The position numbers and the translations under genes were made by a program. The notes under the pieces are model-generated. The model searched no databases and was not told the DNA's origin. It was given only the letters and a program-made list of their open reading frames with translations. From Cenococcum geophilum (taxonomy: Eukaryota), in assembly GCA_050273025.1 (NCBI GenBank), contig CP158635.1:20708001-20772000 (forward strand): a DNA stretch of 64,000 nucleotides, given 5' to 3'. Within the stretch, counting starts at the first letter, position 1. The number at the start of each line of letters is the position of its first letter. Shown here in pieces: positions 1,301 through 64,000 of the stretch.

Positions 1301-1726
1301 TATAACGGAACTTTGTAGCAAGTACTACGATGGGTTTGTTATTGGGCTAGGTGTATAGGTATTATAAGTAAGTCAATAACGTAATAATAACTAGTAGAGT
1401 GGTTGCCTAATAAATTAACTCCAATTATATTCTAAGAATTACTATAAGGAAAGAACTATCTAATATAGGGACTATGGTCCTTTAAATACATAACCGTACT
1501 AACTGCTAGGAAACCCTCCTTATACGTAAGGTACGTGTGCTTTATCTACTCTATTATAGATTATATAAATTATATAGATTATATAGATTACATTATATAA
1601 CTCGGCTACTATTCCTTGTTATATAGTTCTATTGGTTCCATCCTAGACTATATTTATATTAACTAACTAGCTTCTTCTAACTTCTCTCTAAGTAGTCGTA
1701 ATATTGTACTTAAAGCGTCCGTAATA
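1301..1726 (-). repeat. 3' LTR of Gypsy A
   Basis: Direct repeat of 22328-22749 and 59552-59975, adjacent to the PPT. Confidence 0.95.
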
Positions 1727-1834
1727 CCATCTCCCTCCTCTTTATCTTCGTCCTTAAAGATTCTAAATATCTCTAAGTCGTTTATTAGAGGTGTAATATC
1801 CATCTAATTAATTTAGTTAATATTGTTACTTATT

Positions 1835-12656: not shown

Positions 12657-13251
12657 TGTCATGTAATGCGCTACCTATACCTGCGGTATAGGCTAAAGAG
12701 CTTATAAGGCATTCTAACCGGCAGCCCATCCAGTCGCAAGACACTACTACTACCTTTTTAGTAGTTTATATGGTCGAGTGGGTTAGGCTTAGGCATAATA
12801 ATATATCTTGTAACTACCTGGAGGTTAGTGTTCGATCCGGTATAGGGTTGAATATTCATGAGTACGGGACAGCCTAAGCGACTGCACTGCCTGCAGTCGA
12901 GTACAGGGTATCGCACGTGCTTGCTGGAAGGTCACCTTATGGCTTAATAGTGCTAGTACATTTGGGTACTAGCGGGGACGCCTTACGATTACAGCTAGGG
13001 TGCTGTGGGCAGCTTGTACGCTGCGTGGCCAAGACCACCTGGCGAAAGGCTAGCCATTTGTCGTAGTTCAGGCGCCTAAGAACATGCGCCCTAGGAGGGG
13101 GTGTAGTTGTTATGCAATGCGCTACCTATACTTACGGTATAGGCTAGAGAGCTTATAAGGCATTCCAACTAGCAGCCTGTCTAGTCGCGAGACACTACTG
13201 CTACCTTTTTGGTGGTTTGTATAGTTAAGTAGGTTAGGCTTAGGTATAACA
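12657..13251 (+). mobile_element. TRIM copy 2 (595 bp)
   Basis: 144-bp terminal repeats 12657-12800 and 13108-13251; TSD ATTTC/ATTCC (one C>T); same family as 1963-2555; empty site at ~63700. Confidence 0.93.
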
Positions 13252-13938
13252 ATTCCTGTAACTAAGGCATTTCTAATACTGCCTTATTATTCCCTAATAG
13301 TAATATATTAAAAGACATCTTAATCTATCTCCCTTTAATAGTTATCTAAATTGGTCCTATTTTAAGATTAATAATACCTCCTCCGTAGGCTATCGGATCT
13401 CCTAAAATTATTACTAATAAGTAAGAATATTCCTTTTTCCTATATGGTAACCCTATTTTTTTTTTAACTGCTACTAATAAGATATGGTTCCTTATTGCTC
13501 TACTATCTATTAATGCCTTAAACTGTTAATCTTGCCACTTAACTTATAAATTTAGGTATTATTCTTAAATTCCTTTAAGGGTTTAAGGCTCTACTACTAG
13601 TTTCTTTTAGTCCTATAGGCCTCTACTTTTCCTAACTATTAGCTGCTTAATCCTATTTATATTTAGTCTAACTTAGGCTAATACTTAATTCGCTTTTTAT
13701 CTTTAATATATTATAAATATATATTCTTAGGACATTCCCACTACTATCGTCCGTTTAGGTATTCTTCCGTAAGAAATCTTCCTAGTTAAAGTATTAAGTC
13801 CCCTTATTCTTAAACTTCTACTAAGTGCCAACTATATATATACTTAGCGTTTTAATATTTTGCCTTATTTATTAACTAATATATCCTTATTAGATATTTT
13901 TGGTTCCTATCTTTAAGTACTTTATATATATTATACGC

Positions 13939-25680: not shown

Positions 25681-28600
25681 TCCCTTACACCGATATCGTC
25701 CTTAGAGGTGTGGCCCGTGCACGCGATTAAGAACATCGACTTCCTCGCGTCAAGTCGTAAATAGATAACTTTATCAATTAAATACACCACTAAAATGGTG
25801 CGTAATTATATATCCAATAACACTAATCTTGTACAGCCTACTTAATATACTGTTTCCAAAAATTGGGTCGTAAAAAGCCACTGCTTTGGGCTCTAGCACT
25901 TCCTCCTTTCGAGAGCTCTCGTGGTGCGGCAGAATAACTTACCTCCCGTGTATGCACCTCACAGGCTTGCGGGTAACAAGGCCGACAAGCTTGTCTAACA
26001 AACAAGTTGTCGGGCCAACAATATCGGTCGATAAGCAACAACAACAGAACAAGTTTTCTAAAAATATCTTTAAAATAAAAATTATATCGATACTAAGGAC
26101 TATAAGATATTTATTTTAAGGAATAAAAGAGTAGATTTTCTATATTATATAATAAAGAAGCTATAATAGAACACTTAAAATTCTTTAATCTGCCCAATCC
26201 TTTACACATTCAGTCTCTTTAAGTATTTTTATACTTATTGTTATACGATCCCATAGAATTCGACGTTAAGAGCCTAAAAATACTCTCTCTAGCTTATTGC
26301 TTATTCTAGGAATTAAGAGAATCTTAATTATAAGGAGCGAGAGCCGTAGAAACCTAAGACGCTAAGATAATTAACTCCACCAATTAATAGCTTTTATACG
26401 AACTCTTAAACTTATCCTTGCTTTATAGACGAGTAGCCTATAAGCCTCACTTACAAATAGCTCTTTAAAAGACAGAGAGCTCTTCTTTATCAACCTCCGG
26501 CCTACCCCTTTAGGCATTATACGACAGAGTAGTATCTGGAGATAGCGCTTTATCGCGGAATCTCTCCTAGAGCTTTCATATAATATAGAGCTGCTTCTCT
26601 CTAGTAGTACCTATCCTATTATTTTAATCCTTTAAGAAAGCCATATAACGTTTAGGATTCAAAATCCAAGCAGCTAGATAGTATGGAGATTTTAAGAGCT
26701 TTTTTATATACTTTTTAAGCTTTTCCTCAGCTTATACAAGGCAAGGAAGTATAAAGTTATCCTTGCTTAAAGAAGCTAATTCCTAAAAAGAAAGAATTAG
26801 TAAAAGAAACATAATAAGAAGTTGTATAATAAACCCTTATTATTTAAATAAGCTCTTAAAGAGTATTAATTAATTCTAAAACTCTTTCTAATATTATATA
26901 ATCTCCCTAAAGAAAAAGAGTTATATTATAGAAAGCTTTAAGGAAGTTATAAATCGTACAAAGCTAAATCTAGTCATCTATTATAAGAACATCCGCTTTT
27001 AGAATATCTTTCTTATAGTACTTAACATAGAGTTAAAGCCTAGCCTTTACCTAATCCTCTAGAGCCACTAATAACATATTAAACCAGCTATTCCATCTTA
27101 TACAATTATTAAGAGAAATAACTTTCTTAGCTTTGCTCTTAAACTATATTATACAATTTACTAAAGAATAGATATAAACAATATTATTATAAAGCTTTCC
27201 TATTAGTCCTATAATTTCTTAAATATTTTTACCCCTTTTATCTAACTTGTCTTTTTAAAACAAGGGTTTCATCTTTACTTCTCCTTTTGCTAGCTTTTTT
27301 ACTTATTATATAACTTCTTCTTCTAGTTCTACGGCATTCTTTTTCCCCTTTCCCCTCTTTCTAATTAGTGTCTTTATTAGTACCGGCTATTATATAACTT
27401 CGTCCTCACTTTTATCCTCTTCCTCCTCCGCCTTCTCCTCCTCCTCCTCCTCCTCTTCTTCTTCTTCTTCTTTCTTATCCTCTTTATTATACAACGCCAT
27501 AAGCTTTTTATACTTCTTTAAGGTAAAAAGGAAGGCCTAAACAATAAGATTAATAACATGCCCCTAACAGCAAATTCTTTAATACTCCGCGTTCTAGGAA
27601 ATCTTATATCTTAGCGAGAGCTATATAGCAATCATACAACATAGAACGTCATTTAAGCCCACATTATCGCCAACAAGAGCTCTAATCTTTATTTTAATTC
27701 TATACAACTCAAGAACGGGTTAAAGTGCCTCCTATTAATCCTTACCACTTTAACTATGCACTATACAAAGGCCAATTAAGATGTTTTAATATTAATCCTA
27801 AATATTAAGGAAGCTTGCGCAGATTCCAAGTATAAGAGAATAATTAGGAAAGGTCTAGATATTAACCGCAAGGTGGATATTTATCTTTACAGACTAAAGA
27901 ACTCGTTATATAATATCCTGGCTTTTAGTAAAGTAGCTATAAATCCAATCCATAATTGTTAAGTAGTATATTAAAACGATATTAAGATTCGCTGCTTCTT
28001 GGTTTAATACTTTAACAAAAGTATAAAACTCTAGCCACTCAACACATAAGAATAGAAGCCGTCGTACAATAATAAGATCCAGAAGTGTTTGTTTAATAAT
28101 ACCCTTCTCCACTATACGACATAGAACCTCGCCCTTAAGCCCCTAAACCTCTCCCTTTACTAGAAGCTTTTTATAGAGTACTTAAATTAATTCCTTTCCT
28201 TTATCTCGTACTATTATACAAGACTCATTCTCTTCCCAGCTCCATATTATATCGTGCATTCTTTTAAGATAGCCACAAAGCCCTATTATTAAGGCATGCC
28301 ATCCTTCTAGATTATCTAGAAAACAGTATTTACAGAGGTATCTCTTCTTTATACAAAGCTTATCTTCTTTAATAACCTCACAAGTATATTAGTAAATTAA
28401 GGAGAATTTTATAGAACCTTCTTTTATACGACTTATTAAGGTTAAACCTATATTAGTATCAGCGCTTAAAAAACCAGAATAAGTATTACTATCAAATTTA
28501 TCAGATAGAATATCACTCTAATTAGCCATTTTATCCTTTATATAATAAAGAAAGAAGAAAAAGATTAAAAAAGTAGAAATACCAAGCCTTTATTAGAACA

Positions 28601-28744: not shown

Positions 28745-31700
28745 TACTACTATAGTTATACCACACATGCTATATACAGCCTCCTACTAGTATATACCGA
28801 AAGGAGGACGCGGGTTTATTAAAAGAGCTAAATAAGTCTACTTGGTGCTTATAAGGATCTAATATAGAGCGCTCTACCTTATAATAGGAGTGTTTTAGCC
28901 ACAGCCAGAGCTAAACTAAAGGTTAATATACACATCCTACCTATTAAAGTCGCGCTCTACTACACAGTGGAATCTTCCCTAAATTAAATTAGGGGCTCAC
29001 CACTATATAATAAAATCCTATAACTAAGAAGATCTGCCCCAACTAAATATAAATAGTATAGCCTACTCCAGAAGCTAAAAAGTAGTATTAGGCCACGCCT
29101 TTTAGAGGGAATACTACCTATAGAGGAGATCCGCCTAGAGAGGCTCTGCCTATAGGTCGCACCACTATATACCTATATTACTAGGGATAAAAAACAGTAA
29201 GGTAGGAGTATAACTAGATTATATAGGAAGCTAAGGACAACCTAAGACACTTCCTAGCGTACACTAATAGAAGCGAAATTAATAGGGAGGTTAGAGCGTT
29301 AGCATATATACCTTAATTAGGAATAAAGGCAACCAACTATATAGGGATAAACTAAGTTAGTAGTATATACGTAGGAGAGCTAAGAGGCCTCTAACTGGCC
29401 CTAGACTTAGCACTAAAATATTCACTACTAATTAGAAAACTTATAATATTTACGGATAGCTAAGCGGCAATTTAAGTAGTGGTAAAGCCTCGGAACTAAT
29501 TAGGATAGTATTTAGTACATAAAATAAGGTAAAGGCTTTTAGTAGTACAGATAATAAGTATAAAAGTTATAATATACTAGATCCCTTTATACGCGGAGAT
29601 TAAAGGAAATAAATAAGCAGATATCTTGGTAAAGTAAGTAATAGGATAAAGAAAGGAAGGGATAGAACAAAAGGCCCTTACCTTCCCCTCCCTATAAAGC
29701 CTATTAGCGGTAGTAAAAAGAACTATAAAGGCCCAAATAGAGGCACACTAGGAGAAGGAATGGGAAAATAGTAAAACTAGAAGGGAGCTATATAAACTAG
29801 TACTAAAGATCTTAAAGCAAAGACTTAAGATATATAACGACCTACCAAAGGCGCTCTTGGCTATACTTACCCAGATCTAAACAGGAAAGGCAGCTCTAAG
29901 AAGCTACCTCTACAGGATTAAACGTGCGCCCGACTTAAGGTGTATATACGGGGATAAATAGACTGGACAATACGTCCTAGTCAAATATCCTAATTTTAAA
30001 GAACTAAGGAAAGAAATATGGCCGCATAATAGCTAACCTTAAAGCATTTAGAAGATCTTAAACGAGATATAGTTAGTAAAGAAGGCAGCAATCTATATAG
30101 TATAAATAGGCCTCCTAGGGCAGTTTATGGAGGCCAGGAACAGACTAGAAGTGACTACTTAAGTTTCTCTTAACGGCAGACACGTTACGTATGATATTGG
30201 CGGAAGACGGATAGCATTACGGTAAGAAAAAAGGCCCGTAAAAAAGGCCCGGCTTCGACATGCAGTACAGAACGGAGGTATTTCGTGTATTCACTACTTT
30301 TTAATTATTTGATTTCGATCATCTTTTGATTTCAATCATCTCCTTTATATAGGAACTTACCCTGCTTGTATATGTCTTTATAATTGCATTACGACGGCGT
30401 TCTTTTCTAGTTCCCTTACATTATAGACGTTTACTTCTCTTTTAGGCACTATATACTTATAGTACGTAGTAGATAGGCAGACGAGGGCCTTACGGAATTA
30501 CTGCTGCAGGTAAGACGGGTGATTACCTAAGACCTACCTCTGTAAAATAGAAGACCCGGCATGGCGCCCTTAAGGCAGCTAAAACGGTGTATGATTTCAA
30601 AAAAAAAACCCCCCCTCTCGCGAAGCAAAAACCACTATATAAAATGTTATACAGGATGTCTCTTCCAGTGTTAAGCTATCGATTCGCAAGGCCTCGGGCG
30701 CCCATAGAGCACCCAGATCTACCATTAGACACCGTCTTGCTGGCCGTCTCCCACGATATAAAGCCTACCCTAGTTTATTGCATCCTTTATAAGAAGAGCA
30801 AATCATTAAATAGATCAACAAATGCCAATCCTAGGGACTTCCGTTAAAGGTTAATATGCTCTTAGAAATAGCTTATTCCCTTTTAGGAAAAGGCCAAACT
30901 ATAGGCAAGTATTAGGGGCAGAGATTTATTTAACGCCACGGTCTTAGTATTATATTAAGTTATTAGCTTAACTACTAGAGAGCTTGGAATAATAATTTAG
31001 TAGTTATACGTAATTGGTTTAGGTTCTTCCGTGCCGTTTGTAAGTAATATTAAGTTAAGCATTTAAAATTTATTAGCAACTTTGACGAGAAGGGGGTAAT
31101 GCTAGGCCTTACAGCGGTGGCCTGGGTAATTATATTAGGCAAGACATATAGGGAGAGGTTAAAAATTGAATAGTTATTGTCGACCTAAATCGGAGTTCCT
31201 TACTACCATTATAATACTGTCTAACGACCTAGATCGTCTATACGAACTATATCTTAGTTGTCTCTCAACTTATAACTAAATGTCTTATTAAATATCTCAT
31301 TACCTATTTTCTATTACCTATTTTAACTTAGTTGTCTAGACCTACCTAATGTATATAAAGAGCTTCTAGAGCCCTTATTAATAGACAGAGTTCTTATTCC
31401 TAATTATCCGTTTAATAATTATATACCCGGGCTGTCTACTATATTATCTTAATTATAGATAACCACCCACAATAACTTCTTAATAAGAAACCCCTCCCGT
31501 TATTATATTATCCGTTATCCTTATAAACCTAAATAATTAGAACAAATGGATTAAGGTTATTAAGTTAAAAGCGAATAACAATTATCTTTAGAAGTATGTC
31601 GACTTATTAACACCTAAGGCCGATCTGCTATAGCTTAAAGAACCTATTTAAGCCTTACCTAAGGATACCAATATCTGGGGGAAGATAAAGCTCGTGGACC

Positions 31701-32790: not shown

Positions 32791-35700
32791 TATTGGTTAC
32801 ACAAGGGGATATCACGTAGCTACGGTTCGTAGATAGTATAATAATTGTTCTTCTTAATTATTTCTTAAAGAAAGGGGTGAGGAACTTAAGGTTCCTTACC
32901 ACGCTAGTGCCGCGGCGGCACGTGACGGCAACTTGCCGCACGTAACGGCAACTTACCACATATGGTGGCAATATACCTCATATAGTAACCACTTGCCTTT
33001 ATTCCCAACACTAGCAACTCTTCTTTTATAGTTGCTATCTATATATATATACCGCTTAACTAGCGTAATAAATATTAATCCTTTTTACTTACTATTGCTA
33101 TTGTAATATAAGTCTCGCTATCCTAAAATTTGCCTCTTAGCACGTGGTGCTTTCTTACTTAGAAGTTATAGGTAGATATTATATTCGGAGGGCCGCCAAG
33201 GCGCTAGTAGTAAGCGAGCCAATAGCGATTTTCTATCCCGGGAATGGAAAATCCTAATTAGCTAGGTTAAGTTAGGGTCTATAAAATGTCATACTCCCCC
33301 CTTTAAAAAAGTCTTGGTAAGAGAATCTAACTAATTAGATAACTTTAACCGCCGGTTAAAGTTCCTAGACATCTTAAGACCTTACGTAACTAAGAAATTT
33401 TTAGGGACTCCCTTTTAACCTAACCTTTAACTCGTATATATAGAGTATTTGTATTAATAAACGTCTCTAGTGCCTTATTTAGGTTCGCCTTTATTATCGC
33501 ATCTACCGGGTTATCTTGGCCATTAATTTATTAAATCTTAAAGAGTTCTTAACGCTTATAGGATTGCCAAAGTGCCATAATATTAATTATAAGGCGCTTC
33601 TCTTTCGTAGTACTAAGCTTAACAAAATACTCGTAGAGGGAATATAAGTTAGTATACACGATTATAGGGATAATAGGAAGTTTGAGTTAATCTATAATTA
33701 TCTTTAGGGTAGTTCCAATTATAATTGCTATATTAACTCCGCTAACTATTCCATATATCTCTAACGCTAAAACACTTTAGGTAACGTGCTTGCTCTTAGT
33801 TAAGCTCTAATAGATAAGATTACTATAAATTATAAAGTTATTCTCTCTAGTAAATTTATTCGCGATAATAATCTTATATCCTAACTAGGAGCTAAAATCT
33901 TTATTATTTATAAACGATCTATTAATAAATACAAAGAGCTTAGCGGTAGGAAGATTAATAGGTACGTAGAGTAGTCCCCAATTAAGGTAGTTTATTTACT
34001 AGAAAAGACGTTTATTTAGGGCAAGAACGTTATTCTTAGTTAGTTCCTAGTGTTAGGTAGTAATAAAGAGATTAAATAAAGCCTTAGGTTAATAGATAGA
34101 AGTAATATAAGCTCCACGAGCGCGTTGCTTTACGTATCCTTACTTTAGGGAATTAATATTAATAACGTCGATCTTCTTACCTTAACCCTTCTGGCGTAAA
34201 GTAATAGAATCCTTATTTAGGGAGAGGATGCATCTATTAAAGAGTAATAGTGTTATTAAATTAAGCTTTTCTTTTAGCTTTACTATAAGATTTACCTTTA
34301 CTAGCTTATCTTCTTTAAGAGCTAAGAATTGGTTGTCCCCTAAGATAATTATATTATTAGTTTATATGCCAATAATTCCGAATAGAGTTCTTGTAGTTAT
34401 AATAAGGAAGTAGGGATTAAATATAAAAGTAGTTATTAAAAGCTTCTCTTTATAGTGCTTACTATAGGTAGCCCACTAGTGAGTTCCTACCTCTACAATT
34501 CTATATAATGGCTTAAGCACAACTATAATCGTATCTTTAGGATACTAGTAGCGAATTTGCTCCGGAAGGTATACCAATATTAAGCGCTAAAGGTGCGTCT
34601 CTAATTAGGTGTAGGCTTAAGTGATATTTTATAAATAAACCGCCATTCTATTCTTTATTAAGGAGGGAGCTAGCGCAATAATAACTTGCTAACTAGCTCG
34701 TTAAATTATAGGAGATTGCATAAGAATTACCTCCTTACCATTATTATTATAACCTTAGATAATAAGCCTTAATTTCTTAAATAGGGCGTTAGTAGCTTTG
34801 CCTTTAATCTTATTAACCATTTTTAACTTAAAGATGCGAACTTTATCGAACTTAGTAGGGTTATACTTCTTAAATTTAAAGACTCCTCTTGTAATAAGAC
34901 CGTTAATCTCCTGCTTATTAGATGCTTGGAAAGGAGCTCCTAGGGTTATAATACCACCTTCCTTTTAGAGCTATTTTGCGAGCTTAAAGTTAGCCTTCTC
35001 TTTAGCTGTTATAAAGGCCATTAATAACTTAACTCTATTCTTAATGGCGGTAATAAATTATTCTTTAAAATTAATAAGATGTTAGCGATTTTGTAATCCC
35101 TTTAGGTAACCTCTACCGCGTCGTGGTTGTGGCGTATCTACTACAATTATATTGGGATTATAGTCGTCTTCTAAAGCACGTTAATTGTGGTTCTCTTCTA
35201 AGGCATCTTTTAGGGCATCCTATAAAGGCTTAGAATTGTTATCTTTATAGTAAGGCTTAATAATAGTTAAATAGAATTAAGTGGGTCCGTAAGGCATCTA
35301 AATAGTATAAGTTTAACTATTAATTATAATAAGTTAATATAGGCCTAACCATCCTTCCTTTTTACGCTATACGCGTACTTTAGACTAGAGTAGCAGATTA
35401 AGCGTAGTTAAGGTATTTAGGCCATTTCTTATTCCTAGTGCGTTATTAACCTAGCGTATAGCGTAAAGATATCGCACCTCCTTTATTGCCTTGCGAATAG
35501 CCTTAGCTTATTATACAACGAAGGGAGATAGTAGAGAATCGTTAGTCATTTAAGGGTAGGCGCTAAAGACTAGTAATATAGGTACGAGTTTATCTAGGCC
35601 AGCGGAATCGTTAATAGCTTTAACAGCTATTTATAAGGTAAGTTCTTTACTAGCGTCCTTTAGTTTTAAAGAGATAATCTTATATACGCGGCGTAATGGC

Positions 35701-38700: not shown

Positions 38701-40120
38701 TCTGGTAAGCTAAAGCATTATATTAAAGCTATAGTTTTTACCTATAATATAGTTGTAATAGAATATTGCTACCCATCCCTTTAACATAATGGAGAAAGCG
38801 TAGTAGTACTAGTGGTATTAAATTCTAACCTTGTTGCAACAGTTATAGAAGACCTATAGTTTTGCTCTAAGTATGTTATATAATTCTCCTTTAAACTTCT
38901 TCTCTTTATCCAAATATACCTTTATTAGATTCGTAACTTCTTATAGTAAAGGGTTACCGGTTAGCTAGAGTAGAGAAGCTAGAGGTAGTAGAGGTAGAGG
39001 ACAAGTACCTCTAGGTGGGAGAGTACCTCTAGGTAGGAGAGTAGCGTTCTAGGGGTTTTATTCTAAATTAAAGTTGCCTTTTAAAGAATATAGGTTAATT
39101 TTAGGTTTCTATAGTTAACGTATAATCTTAGCTTCCGTCTATACTAGTTCTTCTATACTAGTAATAACGGTCTAAATATTACTAGCAATTAGGTTACTAT
39201 TTTTAGCAACGTATACCCCGTTCCTATAGAGGAAGTCTTAAAAATCCTAAACAATATTAATATTGCTAAGTGCCTAGGTATTAGTGGTCCATCCTATAAA
39301 ATCCTCCCTAAAATATTCCTACAGCTGTATATCGGCGTAGTGTCTACTTTAGTAAAATATAATATGGTGTAGAAGAAAGCTATTAACTTATTTTACGGTA
39401 TAAGTTGTTATATTAAAGGTAAATTCGTCCCAATTTTTATTAATAAGTTTCGCGTATAAAGCTACCCCTAGTAGTAAGGAGTCTTCCTAGTCGTTTAAAG
39501 TAGGCGTAGCCATGTTTTTAGAGGGAGGGAAGTGTTATTAGTGTAGGGATTGTCGTTTGGTATGCGTTTGTAATATATATTTGTCGTTTAGTACGCGTTC
39601 GTGACGTATATTTGCGATTATAGGGCTTAGGACCAGTTCTGGCCTTAAATCGCGAAGACTCGTAAAGCGTATTGTTCTGCGTAATAAACGCAAGAATCCG
39701 TAATCTTAGAAAGGCTTAGGACCAGTTCTGGCCTTTAGATCCTTAGATTTATGGAAGAGTTCTATTTAAGGTTTAGGACTAGTTCTAACCTTAAAAGACA
39801 GCTTCCTTTAGCACGAGTAGTACTGGTACAGTGGCTTATCTCTTCTTAGTGGAATACCTAGCTGCTCTATAGTATAACAGTGAAGTTAACTACTAATTAG
39901 TGTTGGTTATATAAGGGGATATTACGTAGCTACGGTTCGTAGATAGTATGATAATTGTTCTTCTTAATTGTTTCTTAAAGAAAGGGGTGAGGAACTTAAG
40001 GTTCCTCACCACGCTAGTGCCGCGGCGGCACGTGACGGCAACTTGCCGTACGTAACGGCAACTTACCATACGTGGTGGCAATATGCCTTATATAGTGACC
40101 ACTTGCCTTTATTCCCAACA
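32791..40120 (-). mobile_element. Ty1/Copia element (Copia-2), GalEa-like
   Basis: 220-bp LTRs 32791-33010 and 39901-40120; TSD GCTAT; minus-strand integrase HNSIGKVERYHAPLRRAY-like ~35690-35735, DITQAYTQS ~34605, RT GMQTDDT-like ~34350. Clade call is from memory of fungal GalEa motifs. Confidence 0.9.
37198..38413 (-). mobile_element. Internally deleted Fot1/pogo element (1216 bp)
   Basis: Perfect 71-bp TIRs (37198-37268, 38343-38413); TA TSD; minus ORF from ~38288 MPTESEII...psq/CENP-B HTH-like; no DDE core seen. Confidence 0.9.
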
Positions 40121-43163: not shown

Positions 43164-44645
43164 TATCGGTATCACCCAAGTGTACTTGATTGGCCTATTA
43201 ACTGATGAATTGATTCTTGTCTAATAGGTACAGAAAGCAGAGGATCGTAAGGATCGCAGTGCCTAAGTAGGGGGCTGATTAGTCACCATAAGGATGACTA
43301 ATCAAAGACACGTAACCACATAACCTCTGTCCATATATTCCGACACTGGCAGTTCTTTCTTTATGCTTGTAGTGCTGCAGGAAGGCAGCAAGGCAGCAAG
43401 GTAGCAAGGTGTCGGTTTAGCTGGAGGTAGAAGCAGTAAAGGTCTGTTCGGGTGGTAGTACGGTATCAGCGGCGGTAGTGATAGTGGTCAAGCATAGAGC
43501 TTGTCTATCAGTCGGTCGGTTGATCGTAGGCGTATAGGCACGATCATTCGGTCGGTAGATCGCAGGCGTATCGGCGCGATTAGTATCGTAATAGCAGGCA
43601 TAGCGGCGCTATCAGTTTGTCGATGGTATGTGGCAGTACGGTGCTAGCGTCAGGTGGATTGCAGGCGTAATGGCACAATCGTTTAGTCGGTAGACCTCTA
43701 TCCTAACGAAGCTTGATCCTTTGGACGACGACATCCCCAAACGTGCTTATAGAGGGTAGTATTCGAGGATAGGGAGCGCGCTGGCGTTATAGGCGCGCTG
43801 TTGGACGTGGTATTCGACGTGGCAGATCTGCAAGGAAGCAGACGGTGTCGGGGTTATAGGGGGTGCTGCTAATGCTGCTGGGTTGTGGGATGCTGCTGGC
43901 GCTGCTAGATGATGGTTTGCTGCTGACGCTGCTGGATAATAGTTTGCTGCTGACGCTGCTGGGTTGCTGTAACGCTGGTGTACTGCACGAGGCTGTTGGG
44001 TATTGGTTTGTATGCTATGACGCGTACTGGGTAATGGTTTGCTGCTGAGTTGCGTAGCTGCGCTGGGGTACTGCGTAAAGCAGTTGGGTAGTTGGATGTT
44101 GGGTGCTGTAAAAGCTGGTGTGCTGTGTACGGCTAGAGCGCTGCCGTAGTACTGCTGGGGTAGCTGCTGAGGTAGCTGCTGAGGTACTGCCCGAGGGCTG
44201 TTGGACGTTTGGTGCTGTTGAGCTGGGGGTACGGCACTCAGTGAAGAGGTCGTACTAGGGGTTGATTTGCGTGCTGTAGAATGTCTTGTGCGTTGCGTAT
44301 TTGATAAATATTCTAAGCTGGCTGGGGTTGGATGCTGCCGGAGCTGCTGGGTGCTGGTTTTGCTGCTAGGTACTGGATTGCTGCTTGCGATCGAACAAAG
44401 CTGCTGGGGCGGCAGTGAACCTTATTGCTCTATAGCCAACCGGTGAGGTTAACTATTGATTAATGTCAGTATCACCTAAGTGCACTTAATTGGCCTATTA
44501 ACTAATAAATTAATTTTTGTCTAATAGGTACAGAAAGCAGAGGATTATAAGGATCGCAGTGCCTAAGTAGGGGGCTGATTAGTCACTATAAGGATGACTA
44601 ATTAAAGACACGTAACCACATAACCTCTGTCTATATATTCCGACA
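43164..44645 (-). mobile_element. Non-autonomous LTR element (1482 bp), GalEa-like termini
   Basis: 182-bp LTRs 43164-43345 and 44464-44645; TSD ATATT; GC-rich interior with Q/P/S-rich low-complexity minus-strand reading and no pol. Confidence 0.9.
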
Positions 44646-50354: not shown

Positions 50355-51905
50355 TTTTTTTTTATTTTTTATTTTTATATCCGTTGTATTATACTACGTA
50401 TAATACTGCGCATGCAGCCTCTAGGCTATGGCGCTATAGTTCTATATACATGAATCCTTCCTAGGCAGCTTAACATGTACTAGTAGCTAAGTGGACACTC
50501 TGGCCCGTTTTAAATACTAGGGGGAGCTCCTAGCCTATTGGTGTTTTGTCCTGATATCTTGCTTACTATGGTCTAGTTTATGCCAAGAAAATCGCACTAA
50601 GGAAATCCTGGCTCTTTTATCTATTTCTGCCGTATTCTGCCATTCCTAGAGTAGAAAAAGCGCTCTAAAAGAAAGATTTTTATTAAATAGTTTTGCACTT
50701 AAGAATAAGAGGCGTTACAATAGCTTGCTAGCTTGGAAGCAGCTACCAATTACCTAAAGCGACTTTTTATCCTGTACCCTATCTCTTCTCCTTGCTAAAG
50801 AAATGGTTAGGGAATTAGTAATTAATAGGTACTCTCCCCAAAAATAACCTACTAATGGTATTTTATAAGGGCGAACCTCGTTACGTAAACCCACTCCCAT
50901 AGGAAAATTTTCACGAAGTTGTCTTGTATAGGGTATAAACACCAATTCGCCTATACACCTTAGATTTAACGTGCTAAAGTAACACGGGCCGGCCCCTTCC
51001 CCTCCCCCACTATAGCCACCCCTATCTGCGCATCTGCGGTACGCCTATAGTGCGGTATTGTATGGTATGTTGTGGCGGTGGTGGCGGTTGTGGTAGAGGT
51101 CGTCTGCAGCGCGATGGCCGTAGACAGGTTGTGGAGAGGTCGTCTGCAGCGTGATGGCTGTAGACAGGTTGTGGAGGTCGTCTGCAGCGCGATGGCTGTA
51201 GATGGTAGAGGTCGTCTGCAGCCTGATGGCTGTAGACAGGTTGCGAAGGTCGTCTGCAGCTTAATGGCTGTAGACAGGTTGCGAAGGTCGACTGCAGCCT
51301 GATGGCTGTAGACAGGTTGCGAAGGTCGACTACAGCCCGATGGCTGTAGACAGGTTGCGAAGGTCGTCTGCAGCCCGATGGCTGTAGACAGGTTGTGGTA
51401 GAGGTCGTCTGCAGCTTGATGGCTGTAGACAGGTTGTGGTAGAGGTCGTCTGCCGCTTGATGGCTGTAGACAGGTTGTGGTAGAGGTCGTCTGCAGCTTG
51501 ATGGCTGTAGACAGGTTGTGGTAGAGGTCGTCTGCCGCTTGATGGCTGTAGACAGGTTGTGGTAGAGGTCGTCTGCCGCTTGATGGCTGTAGACAGGTTG
51601 TGGTAGAGGTCGTCTGCAGCTTAATGGCTGTAGACAGGTTGCGAAGGTCGTCTGCAGCTTGACGGCTGTAGACAGGTTGCGGAGGTCGTCTGCAGCTTGA
51701 TGGCTGTAGACAGGTTGCGGAGGTCGTCTGCAGCTTGATGGCTGTAGACAGGTTGTGGTGGAGGTCGTCTGCAGCGTAATGGCTGTAGACTGGTTGTAGT
51801 AGAGGTTGTGATGTGTCTGGTATTTGGCGTCTGGTGACGTGTCCGTAGGGGCTATATAGCCAGGGGCGTCCTAGCGACGACGACGGAGGAGCGAAGGGGG
51901 AGACC
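50355..51905 (-). mobile_element. Non-autonomous poly(A) retroposon (SINE-like, 1551 bp) with internal hairpin array
   Basis: TSD TATACGCTAAC(T) at 50344-50354 and 51906-51916; interrupted poly(T) 50355-50376 = minus-strand poly(A); no RT or endonuclease motifs seen. Confidence 0.8.
51087..51809. repeat. Tandem array, about 18 units of mostly 38 or 41 bp, each with a hairpin
   Basis: Unit GGTC-GTCTGCAGC-ttgatg-GCTGTAGAC-AGGTTG(TGGTAGA/CGAA). Confidence 0.95.
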
Positions 51906-53711: not shown

Positions 53712-53731
53712 GGGGGGGGGGGGGGGGGGGG
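53712..53731 (+). repeat. G20 homopolymer
   Basis: Directly visible. Confidence 0.9.
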
Positions 53732-53949
53732 CAATTTAGCTTAGTTACGACTCGAGTAAATATAAGGTTAGAGCTACCCCTACTAATAACGCGCCTGAAC
53801 CCCGCACGAGGTCGCGCAGTAACCGCCCCCAAGTACCTTCGCACGCGATTTTAGGCGAAGGGGTACATAATATATATTAGATCAGTACTTCTAAACGGTC
53901 GCGTAATGTTACTCTAAATTTACAACACTTAAACGCGCTCTACTCCTAC

Positions 53950-54188
53950 ATTAAGGCGTCTTAGTTACTGTAATACAGTCCTATATTAAGACGCCTTGGT
54001 TACTAAAGTATAGTCCTATATTAAGGTGTCTCGGTTACTATAGTATAGTCTTATATTAAGGAGTCTTAGTTACTACAGTAGTCCTATATTAAGGCGTCTT
54101 AATTACTACAGTGCAGTCTTATATTAAGGTGTCTCGGTTACTATAATAGTCCTATATTAAGGTATTTTAGTTACTATAGTAGTCCTAT
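53950..54188. repeat. Tandem repeat, 7 units of 33-35 bp
   Basis: Consensus ATTAAGGCGTCTTAGTTACTACAGT(GC)AGTCCTAT with transition-type variants. Confidence 0.92.
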
Positions 54189-54200
54189 AATAAGATAGTA

Positions 54201-55395: not shown

Positions 55396-57160
55396 TAATA
55401 CAAAGCCTTTCCCTTCCTTTCCCTCCCCCCCACCCTAAGGGCTAGTAGTTAGATATTCTTATAAAGCTAATTTAAAAAACGCTGGCTTCGCAGCTACTCT
55501 AGCTAGTTAATAGCCTATCTCTTATCTTTTGCTATACTATCTTCTACGCGCCGTTTTATATCCTTAATTATCCTATAGCGACGGCTATAAAATATAGCCT
55601 CGCTATTAACCTAGTAGCGCGCCCCCTAGTAGCGATTAAGAGCTTTAATTAACGGCCTACCTGCTAGCCCTAAAGTCTACTTAACCTAAAGCTAGAACAC
55701 TAAATTACCGCCCTAATGTATCTTATATTTCCTTAGCGGCGCTTATAGGTTAAGAATAAATAGGAGAGGTAGTTAAGTATTTGCTTGCGCCTACGCTAAT
55801 AAAGGTAGTATAGATATAGTAAATAGCTAAGTGGGCGGTGTAGATATTAGCTATATGGGGGGTATAAATATAGTAAATAGCTAGGCGGGTAGTGCGGGTA
55901 TTAACTAGGTGGGTGGTGCGGATATAGTAAATAGCTAAGCGGGTAGCGCGGATATAGTAATCGTTATAGTAGACGGCGTAGGCCTACCTAAAGGTAAATA
56001 TATGGACTCTATAAGCCCTATCTAAATGCCTATCTTTCCTTACTAGATTTATATAGATATAGGTATAAATAATACTAATAATTTTTCTATTTTACTAAGG
56101 CGTTCTAAGATTATATATATATATGCAATTAAACCCCTTTAATCTCTAAGATTGCGGCCTTATATTTTAGCTTAGCTACAGCCTTATAGGCGGGCCAGTA
56201 TTTCCGTATTATTAGCTTATTTAGCGCAACTATATTAGCTAGCGAGCTTTCTACTTATATAGTAAACCTTTAGTACTCCTCGCAGCTAAAGAGGGAGTCC
56301 TTTTATAGGGGGTAGAGCGGGAACTGCTTATATAAGATTACTAAGTCCTATAATAGGATTACCCTAAGTATATAGAAGAGGTGTAGAAATTTTAAGCCTA
56401 TAAGGTTAAGCTGTATAACCTTATTATTGGCCCTATCTAGGTAGTAGGTCTCTATATATTTTAGCTAAACATTAGTCTTAGGCTATATATTTAAATAAAG
56501 GGCTTTTTCCGGCACCTCTTATATATAGGAAAAAAAGTAGCCCTTTTTTTAGGAAGCTAGCAATTAACCGTATAAATGTATAGGGTAGGTAGCTAAGGTA
56601 GGCTCCTATTATCGCGTCTATATTCTAGCGTTTAGCCTATTTAATTTAGGTCTCCTTAACGCTACTAAGCTTAGTATACCGGACGCTCTGCTTATAGGCG
56701 CTATAGGTTTTCTCTTTTAAGGAAATCCCTACTCTCTAGAATATCTTCTTATTCTATTTAAACTGCATATAATAGCTTAACGGCCGTTATAGTATTTTAA
56801 TACTGCTAAGGAAAATATATAGGTTATAGTAGTCCTCTAGCTACTAAAAGGATAGAAAGCCTTTAGTACCGTTTTTACCGTAGTAGTTAAAGAAGTAAAA
56901 GGATATTATAGAGAAAGGGTAGAAGATAGGGTTAGCGTTCCGTATATAGCCTATATACTTAACCTTGCTATACTAGTTCTACTTCCCCTATATTATTAAT
57001 ATAATTATATATAGCGTTAGCATATCTAGCTTAGGCCCTTTATTCTCTAGTTTAATAAAAATAAGGTTAGTAAGCTAAACGTCCTATTTACTCTCGCCCT
57101 AGGTAATAGTAGTATAGCCTAAGAAACGGGTTAGAAAACGGTAGCTATATAGACCGGATA
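55396..57160 (-). pseudogene. Crypton (CryptonF-type) tyrosine recombinase C-terminal half + GCR1_C domain
   Basis: Minus strand de-RIPed EKTHSARKQSVRHAELGGVEETQIRRAGRWNTDAMTGAYLSYLP..FMRSIAGF (~56550-56715; HxxR, GRW, catalytic Y) and FYSRRR.II.DI (~55565-55595). The 5' part is displaced by the Gypsy at 57161. Confidence 0.85.
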
Positions 57161-59551
57161 TATAATAAAGCCTTATAGGAAATACTACGGTAGACTTATT
57201 AATGGGCTGGGTATATAGGTATAGAATAGTTAATAACGTAAATATAACTAGTGGAGTAGTTGCCTAACAGATTAACTCTAATTATCTTTTAAGATTTACT
57301 ACTAAGAAAGAGAAACTATTTATAGAGACCGTGTGTCTTTAAATATATAACTCCTTCCCATAGTAAAGGGTTTAGTACGTTAGTACATTAGTATATTAGT
57401 ACGTCGCGTTTCTACGTTCCTACGTTCCTACGTTCCAAACTTGTAATGTAACTAGCTATATAACTTAGCTACCCCTTATCTTATAGCTTAATTGGTTCTA
57501 GCGCCTCCTATACTATCTTAACCCACCCATTTATATCTATTTTTAGTAGTTATACTACTACTAATATAAAGTCCGTAATACTATCCCCCTCCTCTTTATC
57601 TTTATCCTTAAAAATATCTCCTATCTCTAAGTTGTCTACCAGAGGTATAGTATTCCTGTTTTTAATTTAATAACCTTTATTATTTTTAATACCTCCTATT
57701 AGATCCTCTGCGTCTAATTATTATAACCAGCTAGTAATATTTATTCTTTTACTTGGTAAAGTTATACCGTCCTATTCTTATTATACGGAGAGGAAGTTAG
57801 TATATATTGTAATTACGGCTCCGTCTAGTTACTAACCTTCTTCCTATACTAAATGTACGTGAGCGAACATATAGTTATCCTATAATGTTTAATCCGTCTC
57901 TAATACTAAGTATACGCGTCTTATTATTCTTTATAACTATTTAGTTCCTTATTTAATCTATTCTAGGGTTATATATATTAATAGCGGCCGAAAGACTAGA
58001 GAGTAAGCTAGCTAAGGCCCTTACTAAGGTTTAGCGTCCTTTTAATAAGGCATTTTAGGCTCTAAAAGCTTAACTAGATGCTTATGCTCGCTTAAGCCAT
58101 TTAGTAAAGGTTCGTAAAAAGGTGCGCTTAAAGGAGCTGCGCTTAGTAGAGTAAGGTCTATTTAAACTTAAAACTAAGGAGACTGAAAAGGATTTTAATT
58201 AAGAAGAGGCGGAAATAGCTTATACGCTAGTGGTAGATACCTTAGGTAATCCGGCTCTTCTATTACCTTTAACTAATTCCTTTATCTTTAGCTCCTTCTT
58301 AATATTGCCTAACCCGTTTTCTTTTAATACTCCTATACCTTTTCTATAGTATTTTTTAAATTTTATAGTAGTTCCTAGGTAGTCTTATTATAGCCTATCT
58401 ACTTAACCTTATACTATATTTTATTGTTAATGTCCTTATAACTTATAATCTTTAAAACTTACTATTTGCCCCCTTTTTATTCTCTATACGTATCTGCTTT
58501 ATAGATTAGTAGCTTAATATTTCTATATACTAGCTTTAGTATTATAATATACTATATAGGGTAGATCTTTATTTTAGCTAGTAGGTTTAGCTTAAATATA
58601 ACTAATGAAATTCTTTATATAATTTTAAAAGGTCCTAGTCTAACGTAGTCTAACTTCTTACTTAGTTATTAACTCTTAAAAATTTTATATAGTAGCTATA
58701 CTTTATCCCCCTGCTTAAGATCTAGTCCCTTAGATCTCTTAGTATTATAGTACTTTTTTATTCTCTCTTATACTCCTTTTACTAATTCTATAAGGTCTAT
58801 ATAAAGATTTATTAATGTCTTTATTTTTTCTTTAGCTATACTACTTATTTTCTTCGCTTATTATAGTAATAATAATATTCTTAGCTTATATCTATAATTT
58901 GCCTTAAATAGTAATATACCTATTCCTTTTTATAGTGTTATATTATATATAAACTATATAATTAGTAATAATAATACCTAATTTTTTATGCGTAATTAAT
59001 ATAATATCTTAAATACTATTCTAGCGTCTAATTTAGTTTTTCTATTTATCTATCCGTCTATAGATAATATATAATAAAAGTTACTACTCTAACTCTTTAT
59101 TCCATTAAGAATACCTCCTAAAATACTACTATAAATCTTAGATCCCTATTTAATATAATTTTACTTAGTGCTTTATATCTTATGAATACTTCTTTATTAT
59201 AGATTTTAGTAATATCTTCTACTAAGATTTCTTCTATGCATACTATAAAGTAGCCCTATTTAGTTAACTTATCTACTATTACTAGAATTATATTATATTC
59301 CTATCCAGTAATAGGATCTCTTAACTTTAGTAACTTAATAATAAAGTCCTATAATATAACTTCCTATAGTTTCTCTAGTATTTTAATAGGTTATAGCCCT
59401 CCGTATAGCTTATACCTTATTAGTTTATTTTTTTTTAGCTATCTAGATATTCTTTTATTACGTTTTTAGCTATACTCTAGATTCTATTATTTTTTTTAAA
59501 GTCTTAATACTAAGCCTATTACTCTATTATATCCTTAAGTTATTCCCTTAT
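57161..59551 (-). mobile_element. Gypsy (A-related subfamily E): 3' LTR, antisense gene, chromodomain/integrase; interrupted at 59552
   Basis: LTR 57161-57580 similar to but diverged from the A LTR; PPT complement ctatccccctcctc; interior collinear with A. Confidence 0.88.
57689..58355 (+). pseudogene. Antisense six-Cys + coiled-coil gene of Gypsy E
   Basis: De-RIPed MPPVRSS...VMPSCSHCTERKLVCIVITAPSSRQPSSCTECTRANMRSSCDV; same intron position as the 60084 copy. End approximate. Confidence 0.7.
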
Positions 59552-62500
59552 TGTAACGGAACCTTGTAGCAGGAACTACGATAGGCTCATTATTAGGCTA
59601 GGTGTATAGGTAATGCAAATTAAAGTTAACAACGTAATAATAACTGGTGGAGTGGTTGCCTAATAGATTAACTCTAATTATATTCTAAGAATTACTATAA
59701 GGAAAGAACTGTCTAAAGTAGGGACTATGGTCCTTTAAATACATAACCGTACTTCTAAAAAACCCTCCTTGTATATAAGGTATGTATACTCTATTTACTC
59801 TATTACGGATTATATAGATTATACAGATTATACAGATTATATTACATGACTTAGTTACTATTCCTTATTATATAGTTTTACCAGTTTTATTCTAAACCGT
59901 GTTTATATTAACTAACTAGCTTCTTTTAACTCCTCTTTAAGTAGTTATAATATTATACTTAAAGCGTCCGTAATACCATTTCCCTCCTCTTTATTTTTAT
60001 CTTTAAAGATCCTAAATATCTCTAAGTTATTTACTAGAGGTATAATATCCGTCTAATTAATCTAGTTAATATCATTACTTATTATACCTAAAGTAACTTC
60101 TCTTTCCTCTATAGCCCGTCACGCTTATACTATTGCCGTTATACTATCTCTAGGTAAAATAATGCCGTCTCTGTGTTCTTATTGTGCGAAAAAGGGGTTA
60201 GTTTATATTACGCTAGTAAGTCCTTTATCTTAGTAACCCTCTTTTTATTTAGAGTATACTAAAGCAAACATTTATTCGTCCTATAATGTTTACTCTATCT
60301 CTAACGCTAAGTATACGCGTCCTATAACTCTTAATAGTCTATAAGTTCCCTAAGTAATTTGTTATAGGGTTTTATATTTAATCTACTACTACAAAGCTTA
60401 ATAGTAAGCTCTTAAGTGCTCTTAATAAGTTATACTAATTGTAAGAGGCGGAATAAGAGGCTGCGGCTGCTTAATAGCATGCTCTTAAAACTCGTCTTCT
60501 GGCCTCTACTTATCTTCTATATCTTAAATAGGTTCGTAAAAAGGTTTGTTTTAAGGAGTAGAAACTTAGTAATGAAAGGATAAACTCCCCTGCGAAGGAA
60601 ATAAGTCTAAATAGCTTGGTAACTGCTCCTCCTAGGTCCCCCTTAAGTGACTTATTTTTTAATCCTTTTTTATTAATACTGCCTAACCTAATCTCTTCTA
60701 ATACTCCTGTACCTTTCTATAGCGTTCTTTAAATTTTCTAGTAGTTCCTAGGTAGTCTTATTATAGCCTATCTACTTAACCTTATACTATATTTTATCGT
60801 TAATATCCTTATAACTAACGATCTTTAAAACTTGCTATTTATCTTCTTCCTATTCTCTATACGTATCTACTTTATAAACTAGTAGCTTAATATTCCTATA
60901 TACTGGCTCTAGTATTACAATATACTATATAGGGTAAATTTTTATTCTAGCTAGTAGGTTTAACTTAAATATAATTGGTAAAATCATTTATATAATTTGA
61001 AAAGGTCCTAGTCTAACATAGTTTAACTTCTTACTTAGTTGTTAACTTTTAAAAATTTTATATAGTAGCTATACTTTATCCCCCTCTTTAAGATCTAGTC
61101 CCTTAGATCTCTTAGCGTTGTAGTACTTTTTTATTCTCTGCTATACTACTTTAGCTATTCTTATAAGGTTCTTATAAAGATTTATTAATATCTCTATCCT
61201 TTACTTAGCTATGCTACTTGTCTTTTTTACTTAATATAGTAATAATAATATCCTTAGCTCGTATCCATAATTCGCCTTAAATAGTAATATATCTATTTCC
61301 TCTTATAGTGTTATATTATATATAAGCTATATAACTAGTAATAATAATACCTAATTGTTTTGTACGTAATTAATATAGTGCCTTAGATACTGTTTTAGTG
61401 TCTAATTTAATCTTTCTATTTAACTATCTATCTATAGATAATATGTAGTGGAAGTTATTGCTCTAACTCCTTACTCCGCTAAAAATACCTCCTAAAATAC
61501 TACTATAAATCTTAGATCTCTATCTAATATAATCTTACTTAGTGCTCTATATTTTACAAATACTTCCTTAATATAGATTCTAGCGATATTTTCTACTAAT
61601 ATTTCTTCTATATACGCTATAAAGTATCCCTACTTTATAAGCTTATCTACTATTACTAAGATCGCGTTATAATCTTGCCTGGTAATAGGATCTTTTAATT
61701 TTAGCAACTTTATAATAAAGTCCTATAATATAACCTCCTATAGTCTTTCTGGTATTTTAATAGATTATAGCCCTCTATATAGCTTATACCTTATTAGTTT
61801 AATTTTTTTTATAATCTAGATATTCCTTTATAACCTTTTGCGCGAGGTTTTAGATTCTATTAATAATATACTCCTCTTAGAGTCTTAACACTAAGCCTAT
61901 AGCTCTATTGTGTCTTTAAGTTAGCCCCTTATAGAAATCTTCTATAAAGTGCTCCGCTATACTTCTTAGGATATACTTTACTTCTTAATATTTATATAAT
62001 ATCTCCTTTTCTAAATGTTCTAACTATTCTTCTAGTTATGCTTTAAAGATCCTTTATACCTAAAAGCTTTCTAGTAACTTATAAACTCTATCTAGTTCCT
62101 CTTAAGTTATTATAATTTTTGGATGATTATACCTAATTAATCCGTCTATATCTTTTCGCAGTAAAGCCCCTAATGGCTTTATATTATTTTATAGTTTAGC
62201 TTTCTAACTTAAAGTATTTACTTATATATTATCTGTTCCTTTAGTATACTAAATCTTAAAATGGTATTCTATAAGCATCTCTGCCTATTTAACCTATCTT
62301 TAGTTAAGTTCCTTTATTATTAAAAATCCCGTTAGGTTCTTATAAGCCATCTTAACTATAAATAGTTTCTCTATACCTTATAAGAATACTCTTTATTTCT
62401 TTAGTCCTGTAACTATACCTAATAACTCCTTATTATAGATGTTATAGTTTAACTTTAGTAGTATTATCTTCTAACTATAGTATACTACTAGGTGCTATCT

Positions 62501-64000
62501 GTCTTAATATTTTTATATAAAGTATGCCCCTAGTATAAAGTCTAATACATTCGTTTTTATAACTATCTCTAATCCTAGTTAATAGATCTTAAGAACTAGC
62601 TCCTAAGTAAATAATTCCTTAACTCTCTTAAACAGCTCTTATTATTCCTTTCCCTATACCTATAGTTTTTCTTTCTTTATTAACCGCGTAAATGGTTTAA
62701 TATCCTTTAACTATTTCGCTATAAACCTTCTATAGTAATTATAAAACCCTAAAAACGATCTTAACTATATAACGTTCTCCGGTTCTTATTAATTTACTAT
62801 AGGCTTAATCTTTTTTAGATCTATACTAAGTTGGCCTAGTTTAATAATAAATTTAATAAAATCGGTCTTCTTAGTAAAGAACTTGTATTTCTTAATTGCT
62901 ACTAGCATCTATTCTTTTTATAGTCTCTTTAAGACCTATTTAACGTGTTCTCTATATTCTTCCTTGGTTATTAAGTAGATAATAATAATATTAAAATATG
63001 CTATAATAAATTTATCTAAGTATTTTCTTAATATATTGTTAATACGCTTCTAGAATATTACTAGTGCGTTTATAAGCCTAAATTATATAACTAATGGTTT
63101 ATATAGTCCTTCCTTTAACCTAAAGGCTACCTTTTATTTATCGCCTTCCTTAATTCTGATTTAATGGTACGCCTATCTCAGATTTATCTTTATAAAGATT
63201 TGCGCGTTGCCTATTCTATCTTAAATTTCGCTAATTAAGGGTAAAGGATACTTATCCTTTCTAGTAATGCTATTTAACTACCTATAGTCGATATATAGCC
63301 TTAGTTTACTATTCTTTTTTAGTATAAATAGTACTAGATAACTCGCTAATAATTGCGATAGTCTAATGTATCCCTTTTGTAAGTTTTCCTAGATAAACTC
63401 TTTTAATACTCTACCTTTTTCTTTGGTAAGCTTATAGATTAGAAAAAACCTTAAACTTATTCCTAGTTCTAATTCTATTCTATAGTCCTATACTATATAC
63501 TTTAATAGCTTTTTACTCTTCGGTGACTATAGTTTCTTACCATACTTATAGTATCTTTTTGGTATATAGCTTAGCCCTTTTTCTGTTTCTTTATAGGTCG
63601 CTCCTACTTAGTACTATACCATCTTAGCTTATTATCGCATTTTGCGTTATTAAGTATTCTTAATATTAACTTAACCTATAACCTAATCGATCTTTAGATT
63701 ATATTCCTATAACTAAGGCATTCCTAATACTACCTTATTATTTCCTAATAGTAATATATTAAAAGACATTTTAACTTATTTTCCTTTAATAGTTAACTAA
63801 ATAGGTCCTGTTTTAAGATTAATAATACCTCCTTTATAGGCTATTAGATCTCCTAAAATCGTTACTAATAGGTAAAAATATTCCTTTTTCCTGTATGGTA
63901 ACCCTATTCTTTTAACTGCTACTAGTAAGATATAGTTCCTTATTACTCTACTATCTATTAATACCTTAAACTGTTAATCTTACCACTTAGCTTATAAATT
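59552..64000 (-). mobile_element. Second Gypsy family A copy (3' LTR to protease), running off the window
   Basis: LTR 59552-59975 matches 1301-1726; interior collinear with 1727-13540 but lacks the TRIM and Gypsy C inserts. Confidence 0.93.
60084..60732 (+). pseudogene. Antisense six-Cys + coiled-coil gene of Gypsy A copy 2 (one intron)
   Basis: De-RIPed MPKVTS...PCSYCAKKGLVCIALASPSSRQPSSCSECTKANIRSSCDV; intron 60313-60367 restores the frame into W...LDELRQLQEAEQEAAAAQQ..RLLRLEQVRKKVRSKERKL. End approximate. Confidence 0.75.

Follow-up and report, generated by a model that had tools for sequence, protein, structure and literature searches.

Whether a gene carried on the strand opposite to pol can be a working part of a fungal retrotransposon is the question raised by a 64,000-nucleotide stretch of Cenococcum geophilum DNA (GCA_050273025.1, contig CP158635.1, positions 20,708,001 to 20,772,000; hereafter the window). 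The window is a nest of fungal transposons decayed by repeat-induced point mutation (RIP). It holds three copies of one Gypsy/chromovirus element, two of type A and one of type E, all with pol on the minus strand. In each of them, an antisense gene sits between the 3′ long terminal repeat (LTR) and the chromodomain. This gene comprises a C-x2-C-x6-C-x13-C-x2-C-x8-C motif, a 55-nt intron, and a last exon encoding a long helix and an acidic, Pro/Ser-rich tail.

The position, antisense orientation, spacing, 55-nt intron and helix-rich last exon had been predicted in three copies from the letters of the window alone, and all were borne out. With Cys or Tyr allowed at each motif position, the spacing pattern matches twice in the window (57773 and 60174), compared with 0.065 matches expected and a maximum of 1 in 200 residue shuffles. 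The six cysteines themselves cannot be read literally there: 2/6 are left in the copy at 1835, 1/6 in the E-type copy and 2/6 in the A-type copy at 60174. Therefore, a check of the motif had to rely on copies elsewhere. The 223 raw sites reduced to 171 distinct ones, of which 145 (12 clusters of at least 5) were analysed and the 26 outside clusters were left out. In these 145 copies, the six motif columns hold Cys or RIP-derived Tyr in 868/870 cells, so the six-Cys reading stands outside the window; this set is not fully unselected, because part of it was found through protein similarity. Among 30 loci chosen by integrase alone, one of which is a window copy, the motif is present in 26/30 and some part of the gene in 29/30. 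Conversely, of 80 metagenome loci chosen by the gene, 73/80 have, at a distance of up to 2 kb, integrase/chromodomain pieces on the opposite strand, 4 are without such pieces and another 3 do not extend far enough, and same-strand pieces occur in 0/80. The element carries this gene as a standing component. In 29/30 and 73/80 of these loci, respectively, it occupies the place of an aORF-3R, an antisense additional open reading frame (ORF) between pol and the 3′ LTR, a class to which brtn (see below) also belongs.

RIP produces transitions only. Therefore, purine/pyrimidine differences were counted, and the columns varying by transversion between clusters were sorted by codon position (1/2/3), whereby the clusters are kin-related and the columns are not independent events. 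The Cys exon gave 12/6/30 (p=5e-5), the last exon gave 20/19/42 over its helix part (p=6.5e-4), and the intron was flat (4/5/4). For A versus E alone, the Cys exon, helix exon and intron gave 10/4/19, 7/13/27 and 2/3/2, respectively. The third-position excess shifts its phase exactly where the 55-nt intron predicts. In addition, shared length variants are in frame in 7/8 classes of the last exon, compared with 3/8 in the LTR repeats. Selection on the antisense protein, as the original prediction had it, is supported by these RIP-independent tests, by the in-phase length variants and by an intact spliced protein, P0271, described below. Judged by its pattern of substitution, the gene evolved under protein-level constraint.

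In the E-type copy (plus strand for all gene features), the motif occupies 57773–57883 and the main intron 57912–57966, and the last exon with the long helix and the acidic/Pro-Ser tail, located by tblastn with P0271, runs from 57967 to the stop at 58349. In the A-type copy, the segment 60162–60312 contains the short-form ATG at 60162, the motif at 60174–60284 and 2 stops; the intron follows at 60313–60367, with a RIP-altered donor and a junction that agrees with P0271, and the last exon (60368–60722), with deletions inside this copy, reaches the family-wide stop. This terminal stop is kept in 114/114 A-type copies, as is a stop inside the 55-nt intron (114/114), and it maps to 60720–60722 instead of the gene end of 60732 given before. 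The gene ends over the last codons of the chromodomain; the earlier claim that it ends over the pol stop is not established, as this stop is hidden by RIP. The sequence SSRQPSS, listed earlier as conserved, is present in none of the three window copies. In the third copy, the gene is indeed there (1791–3081; start 1835, intron 2662–2716, stop 3079–3081), but an insertion of 593 bp at 1963–2555 separates Cys3 of its motif from Cys4. The inserted sequence is a non-coding element resembling a terminal-repeat retrotransposon in miniature, with TG..CA ends, two ~140-bp direct repeats and a 5-bp target duplication, and it entered the same Gypsy copy twice (1963–2555 and about 12651–13254).

The main intron measures 55 nt in 139/139 complete copies and 55, 130 and 133 nt in relatives (133 in L091), in one phase throughout, to which the search was limited. 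In the 145 copies, its donor is GT in 11 and AT in 134, its acceptor is AG in 133/145 and a canonical branch motif occurs in 60/145; four less mutated relatives retain the GT donor. An apparent 70-nt intron in E was rejected as a threshold artefact, the true length being 55 nt. A second, upstream intron had been overlooked, and the proposed gene starts at 1835, 57689 and 60084 all lie inside it. It spans 57645–57702 in the E-type copy (58 nt, holding the RIP-altered long-form start 57689), 60040–60093 in the A-type copy (54 nt, holding the RIP-altered long-form start 60084) and 1791–1844 in the third copy (holding 1835). By a strict count, its GT donor is present in 141/145 copies and the branch motif in nearly all; the E copies have the GT donor and the branch motif in 31/31 and AG in 22/31.

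Profile searches returned 168 representatives, 850 near-length and 14 longer proteins, nearly all of them RIP-damaged unnamed ORFs. P0271, a single JGI record from a 1423-nt contig, has all six Cys intact, no stop and the same end as the predicted gene. Both introns are absent from it, removed at the predicted sites: it carries the junction residue expected from removal of the 55-nt intron, and its residues 6–31 correspond to 57565–57645 (LTR end and spacer), after which the match resumes at 57701. These two exact removals, in one record of unstated molecule type, point to an RNA-derived contig. Once the upstream intron is removed, the first Met lies 3–4 codons before Cys1; since the frame of the upstream exon differs between A and E, this exon is probably untranslated. 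Both start positions occur across clusters. The stretch between the two starts has a third-position excess (8/3/17), which the pol frame could equally produce and which is consistent with a longer, intron-retaining form. The LTR-end start of P0271, the sole record of this kind, suggests transcription from the 3′ LTR, the promoter region originally proposed; RNA reads gave no support, as four RNA runs (at most 4% of the words) contained no spliced joint at either intron. Intron-loss copies were sought among single-frame P0271 matches in the own genome, 11/12 of these loci being Cys-to-tail candidates or their neighbours, and the inspected ones keep the intron and have small indels. Another protein, P0023, joins the Cys domain and the helix without the predicted junction, probably through a deletion, and was not counted as splicing evidence.

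The A and E types had been regarded as independently diverged subfamilies. This does not hold, as they have gag-pol in common: 0/385 integrase columns differ, compared with 33/211 and 47/199 columns of the two exons. Along full-length copies, the distance of E to an A copy is 0.005–0.06 in gag-pol, compared with mostly 0.10–0.17 in LTR and gene, and copy L178 differs by 0.00–0.02 over gag-pol compared with 0.086 in the helix exon. The LTR and the gene are the fastest-diverging parts of the element and are exchanged jointly. The U3 region of the LTR contains tandem repeats of 8–9 bp, of several types. In 108 A-type copies, from which 12 in small U3 clusters were dropped, the two main U3 types pair with N-terminal types of the protein in 56/56 and 37/40 copies, while the integrase type is independent of the U3 type, and neither the Cys-core types nor the helix types respect the boundary between the U3 types. 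On these comparisons, A and E differ in LTR and gene only, and the supposed subfamilies are alleles of one swapped cassette, made up of U3 and the gene, within a common gag-pol backbone. Such allelic LTR/gene pairs permit a comparison of matched and mismatched combinations.

A Cys6 cluster followed by a long helix is the layout of fungal Zn2Cys6 regulators. The element protein shares with the Zn(II)2Cys6 domains of Gal4, PPR1 and HAP1 the two C-x2-C halves (in the 868/870 cells above, and with all six Cys in P0271), the x6 first loop, a Pro shortly before Cys4 and the long helix behind the cluster, predicted at ~60 residues with a pLDDT (predicted local distance difference test) over 90. In contrast, it stays below the Pfam cut-off, its middle loop has 13 residues, basic recognition residues are missing in front of Cys3, there is no activation or middle homology region, and only half of the motif is alignable. 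The profile likeness to host Zn2Cys6 domains is weak (48%, 17 columns). A homodimer-with-zinc prediction (0.11) spoke neither for nor against such a dimer. A PDB sequence search with the profile found nothing, and the best hit of P0271, PPR1, was not significant (E=4.4). Foldseek gave no match, and VIA-align gave generic helices only (Z under 7). The ESM Atlas provided leads only, namely bacterial hypotheticals (0.76) and unnamed Ascomycota clusters (0.85, 0.83 and 0.78). A word-indexed search with one RIP-altered exon as the query had no match, and no relatives were found in viral contigs.

DUF3716 (PF12511) was considered as well, since it also has six Cys over a 37-residue span, a C-x2-C-x8-C end and an association with transposons, including REP9 of Zymoseptoria (PMC8232023, as far as the passages available show). 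Its loops differ, with x9/x10 compared with x6/x13 in the element gene, and membership was rejected: the score is 15.4 bits against a cut-off of 22, hhalign gives 1.4%, the C-x2-C-x9-C-x10-C spacing is not matched, and 1/30 members had a weak full-length match (E=0.018). A RIP-decayed DUF3716 repeat family was encountered separately (L191–L200; 55 matches, 47 over the cut-off), with no pol match near the 10 loci examined; its flanks match the window at 32803–33287, 39899–40118 and 53725–54195.

Genes of this kind have already been published. The brtn gene of Boty is an extra antisense gene located between pol and the 3′ LTR in a fungal Gypsy element that has a chromodomain (PMC8365987, PMC4227169, PMC7264820; also treated in PMC5987419), and Boty consensus variants have an identical centre and different ends (bioRxiv 2022.03.07.483234), according to the parts of these papers available to us. 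By description, the gene reported here is a variant of that kind, with the same place and antisense orientation. The available passages on brtn mention no two introns with an in-intron start, no selection tests and no cassette exchange, and as far as they show, the present case adds selection evidence, an exact gene structure, a natural intact protein and allelic LTR/gene pairs to the fungal precedent. The literature covered, with most subscription papers and Repbase outside the search and hence as weak evidence, likewise has no description of this spacing, of two introns or of selection on such a gene. No named protein, and so none naming BRTN, was among the profile matches listed. Zhao et al. 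[quoted passage not shown] Cys3 is thus placed differently, with x6/x13 in the element gene compared with the x9 ascribed to BRTN.

Comparable arrangements exist further afield, as far as the passages available to us tell. Plant LTR elements carry family-wide antisense ORFs between pol and the 3′ LTR, presumed to be nuclear regulators with a promoter of their own (Grande gene23, RIRE2 and Retand TRP28; PMC7264820), and the HBZ gene of human T-cell leukaemia virus type 1 (HTLV-1) is antisense with its promoter in the 3′ LTR (PMC7264820, PMC11963269). These are unrelated proteins of other lineages and serve as an analogy only. What such additional antisense genes do in LTR retrotransposons is acknowledged to be an open question (PMC7264820).

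The window itself contains a second case, in a Gypsy element of another lineage that we call family C. Its six-Cys motif lies at 9717–9818 (minus strand, first Cys at 9818) in a gene at about 9070–10000, antisense to a plus-strand Gypsy at about 5900–9060. The spacing, C-x2-C-x11-C-x7-C-x2-C-x6-C, differs from that of the A/E gene and is found in 25/25 loci, with 166 first-look candidates, and the protein has a helical middle and a long acidic tail. The reverse transcriptase (RT) of this lineage is 36% identical to that of the A/E element. No profile similarity between the two antisense genes was detected, in line with the earlier remark that the sequences look unrelated; this and the other spacing fit repeated acquisition or a very old divergence. 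With this differently spaced gene in an unrelated Gypsy lineage and with the published brtn of Boty, the earlier idea of a recurrent accessory module gains support.

What the protein does is a matter of graded likelihood. Our preferred reading, to which we give slightly less than an even chance, is that this antisense accessory gene of a fungal chromovirus regulates the element's own LTR. It builds on the observed gene structure and selection, and the promoter, isoforms, zinc, dimerisation and target in it are what we infer. A spliced mRNA would arise from a promoter in the 3′ LTR that reads antisense. With the upstream intron removed, translation would begin 3–4 codons before Cys1 and yield about 188 aa, and with this intron retained, about 25 aa, forming a basic helix, would be added from the earlier start. 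Zinc would be bound by the six Cys and the 60-residue helix would mediate self-association, and the nuclear protein would act on its own LTR, at the tandem repeats of U3, where it would turn on transcription of its own lineage or protect it. Such a regulator would account for the joint travel of U3 and gene and for their fast divergence around a common gag-pol backbone, and the case may also explain the growth of a single family to thousands of copies under RIP. A bolder version is clearly less probable, and we offer it tentatively: fungal chromoviruses would have repeatedly acquired six-Cys/coiled-coil regulators as swappable U3-plus-gene cassettes, in which the encoded factor fits the repeats of its own LTR, is made in two forms by retention of the start-holding intron, and trans-activates or counters silencing in a lineage-specific way. 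VANC of the Arabidopsis VANDAL DNA transposons is an element-encoded factor that evolves along with its family's tandem target motifs; it comes from a DNA transposon and has another domain, and anti-silencing has been demonstrated for VANC only. If true, the cassette reading would place these elements among 'complex' retrotransposons, their circuit resembling that of Tax/HBZ or VANC. The case also points to a class of fungal Cys6 proteins, labelled 'hypothetical', as genes of transposons.

Several observations weigh against an LTR-acting regulator. The commonest Cys-core type is common to both U3 types (48/52 and 22/40), contrary to a lock-and-key relation of Cys core and U3, and the coupling of U3 and N-terminus may reflect nothing more than their linkage (about 300 nt) in related copies, with few independent events. 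An excess of CGG pairs in U3 was looked for and not found; HAP1-like CGG-N6-CGG targets were rejected, with 0–2 CGG pairs per family. Pfam Zn_clus (PF00172) was not reached (15.5 and 13.6 bits, cut-off 21), nor did intact P0271 match it, and the Cys domain is modelled with low confidence (pLDDT 43–57). The 14 host Zn2Cys6 domains have a basic RxRKxK between Cys2 and Cys3, where the element has KEGLV/EKKLV-type loops instead. One raw RNA run contained neither exon nor spliced reads, with zero depth over 59993–60580. The selection evidence has its own weak points: the third positions of the Cys exon are also those of the pol frame, so that the helix exon alone separates the strands; the last 50 codons lean toward the pol frame (7/6/14, p=0.13); and the integrase positive control was powerless (12/388 columns varied).

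The absence of the Zn2Cys6 recognition residues would also suit an accessory protein working via proteins or RNA instead of LTR DNA, either in counter-defence against RNA interference, methylation or heterochromatin or as a Gag/integrase cofactor, with the fast changes in the helix reflecting a host arms race. We consider this somewhat unlikely. The heavily RIPed genome speaks for it, as does the helix exon, which is more diverged than any other region in almost every comparison of full-length copies, but the divergence peaks at third positions, which indicates age or exchange and not amino-acid diversification, and the joint travel of U3 and gene is left unexplained. A self-limiting control, in which the protein represses its own LTR as HBZ does, or the antisense RNA feeds silencing and the protein is secondary, is improbable in our view: protein-level selection in two exons implies that the protein matters, and the element stands at 3400–3800 first-look candidates, even though the transcript would overlap the end of pol and the geometry resembles that of HTLV-1 hbz (PMC7264820, PMC11963269, in the parts available).

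The overlap with pol also allows the antisense frame to be viewed as the shadow of a long C-terminal pol extension on the sense strand. All near-fixed pol-frame stops from the chromodomain to the LTR have RIP-precursor variants in the 114 pooled A-type copies, and the constant intron (55 nt in 139/139; 55, 130 and 133 nt in relatives, in the same phase) fits such an extension. As the sole explanation it is nonetheless largely refuted and very improbable. Variation in the helix exon is highest at antisense position 3, equivalent to position 2 of pol (42 vs 19), the phase switches at the intron, and P0271 is spliced; moreover, fixed stops make up 3.2% of the overlapping pol-frame codons compared with 0.8% in true pol, and another minus frame is nearly equally open. 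Pol may still continue beneath the whole antisense gene, as in the pooled A-type pol frame at 59975–60720 (minus strand) and beyond, stops without a RIP-precursor variant first occur ~120 nt inside the 3′ LTR. The intron length preserves the pol-frame phase, and no clear third-position signal was found for the pol frame there. Scarcely credible, finally, is a captured fragment of a host gene carried as a passenger of no benefit to the element. The introns, the Cys6 motif and the partial likeness to host Zn2Cys6 domains recall a fungal nuclear gene, but selection acted inside the element, 29/30 copies have the gene, and no non-element homologue was found among the best own-genome matches examined or among named proteins.

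The host element was characterised from the window and its relatives. The E-type copy starts at 57158 with its 3′ LTR (57158–57584, minus strand; blastn against both LTRs of the full-length E copy L190), and the integrase and chromodomain end of its pol (58340–59551, minus strand) is cut at 59551 by the A-type copy inserted there. The latter starts at 59552 with a 424-bp 3′ LTR (59552–59975, minus strand), whose U3 has a 9-bp tandem repeat near 59806–59845, followed by the polypurine tract (59976–59995, minus strand), a purine run beside the inner LTR end. Its pol (60720–64000, minus strand; RT, RNase H, integrase and chromodomain) overlaps the end of the antisense gene. The third copy, A-type and interrupted by several insertions, is the first in the window; it begins at 1303 with its 3′ LTR (1303–1726, minus strand). 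In the window, RVT_1 and RT_RNaseH score above the Pfam cut-off, while Chromo falls below it in the window copies, which are too decayed for scoring; Chromo and SH3_Tf2-1 are above it in the relative L092, and Chromo alone in L103. The domain order RT, RNase H, integrase, chromodomain, seen across the window, L092 and L103, fits a Ty3/Gypsy chromovirus. The LTRs are ~425 bp long with TG..CA ends and an adjoining polypurine tract; LTR pairs are present at 42/69 metagenome sites having enough flank, and 5-bp target duplications, LTR ends and the polypurine tract are visible in L137, L167 and L176. Own-genome DNA searches gave 3400–3800 first-look candidates, of which 40 were scored per search, suggesting a very abundant element with copies in the thousands, counted as such candidates.

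The loci related to the antisense gene copies have TpA/ApT ratios of 1.5–1.7, in a genome that is heavily RIPed. The relatives L091–L093 have TpA/ApT <1 and CpG loss instead of the CpA pattern, which suggests another host or mutational regime. Within the window, GC-rich tandem repeats at 43747–44421 and 50966–51904 escaped heavy RIP and yield long low-complexity ORFs. The sequences at 300–1260 and about 15100, with CCHC knuckles, are what we take to be ORF1 remnants resembling those of long interspersed nuclear elements (LINE-like). By eye, remnants of DDE transposases were also recognised, presumably pogo/Fot1-like at about 30150–31200 (plus strand) and hAT-like at about 26300–27400 (minus strand).

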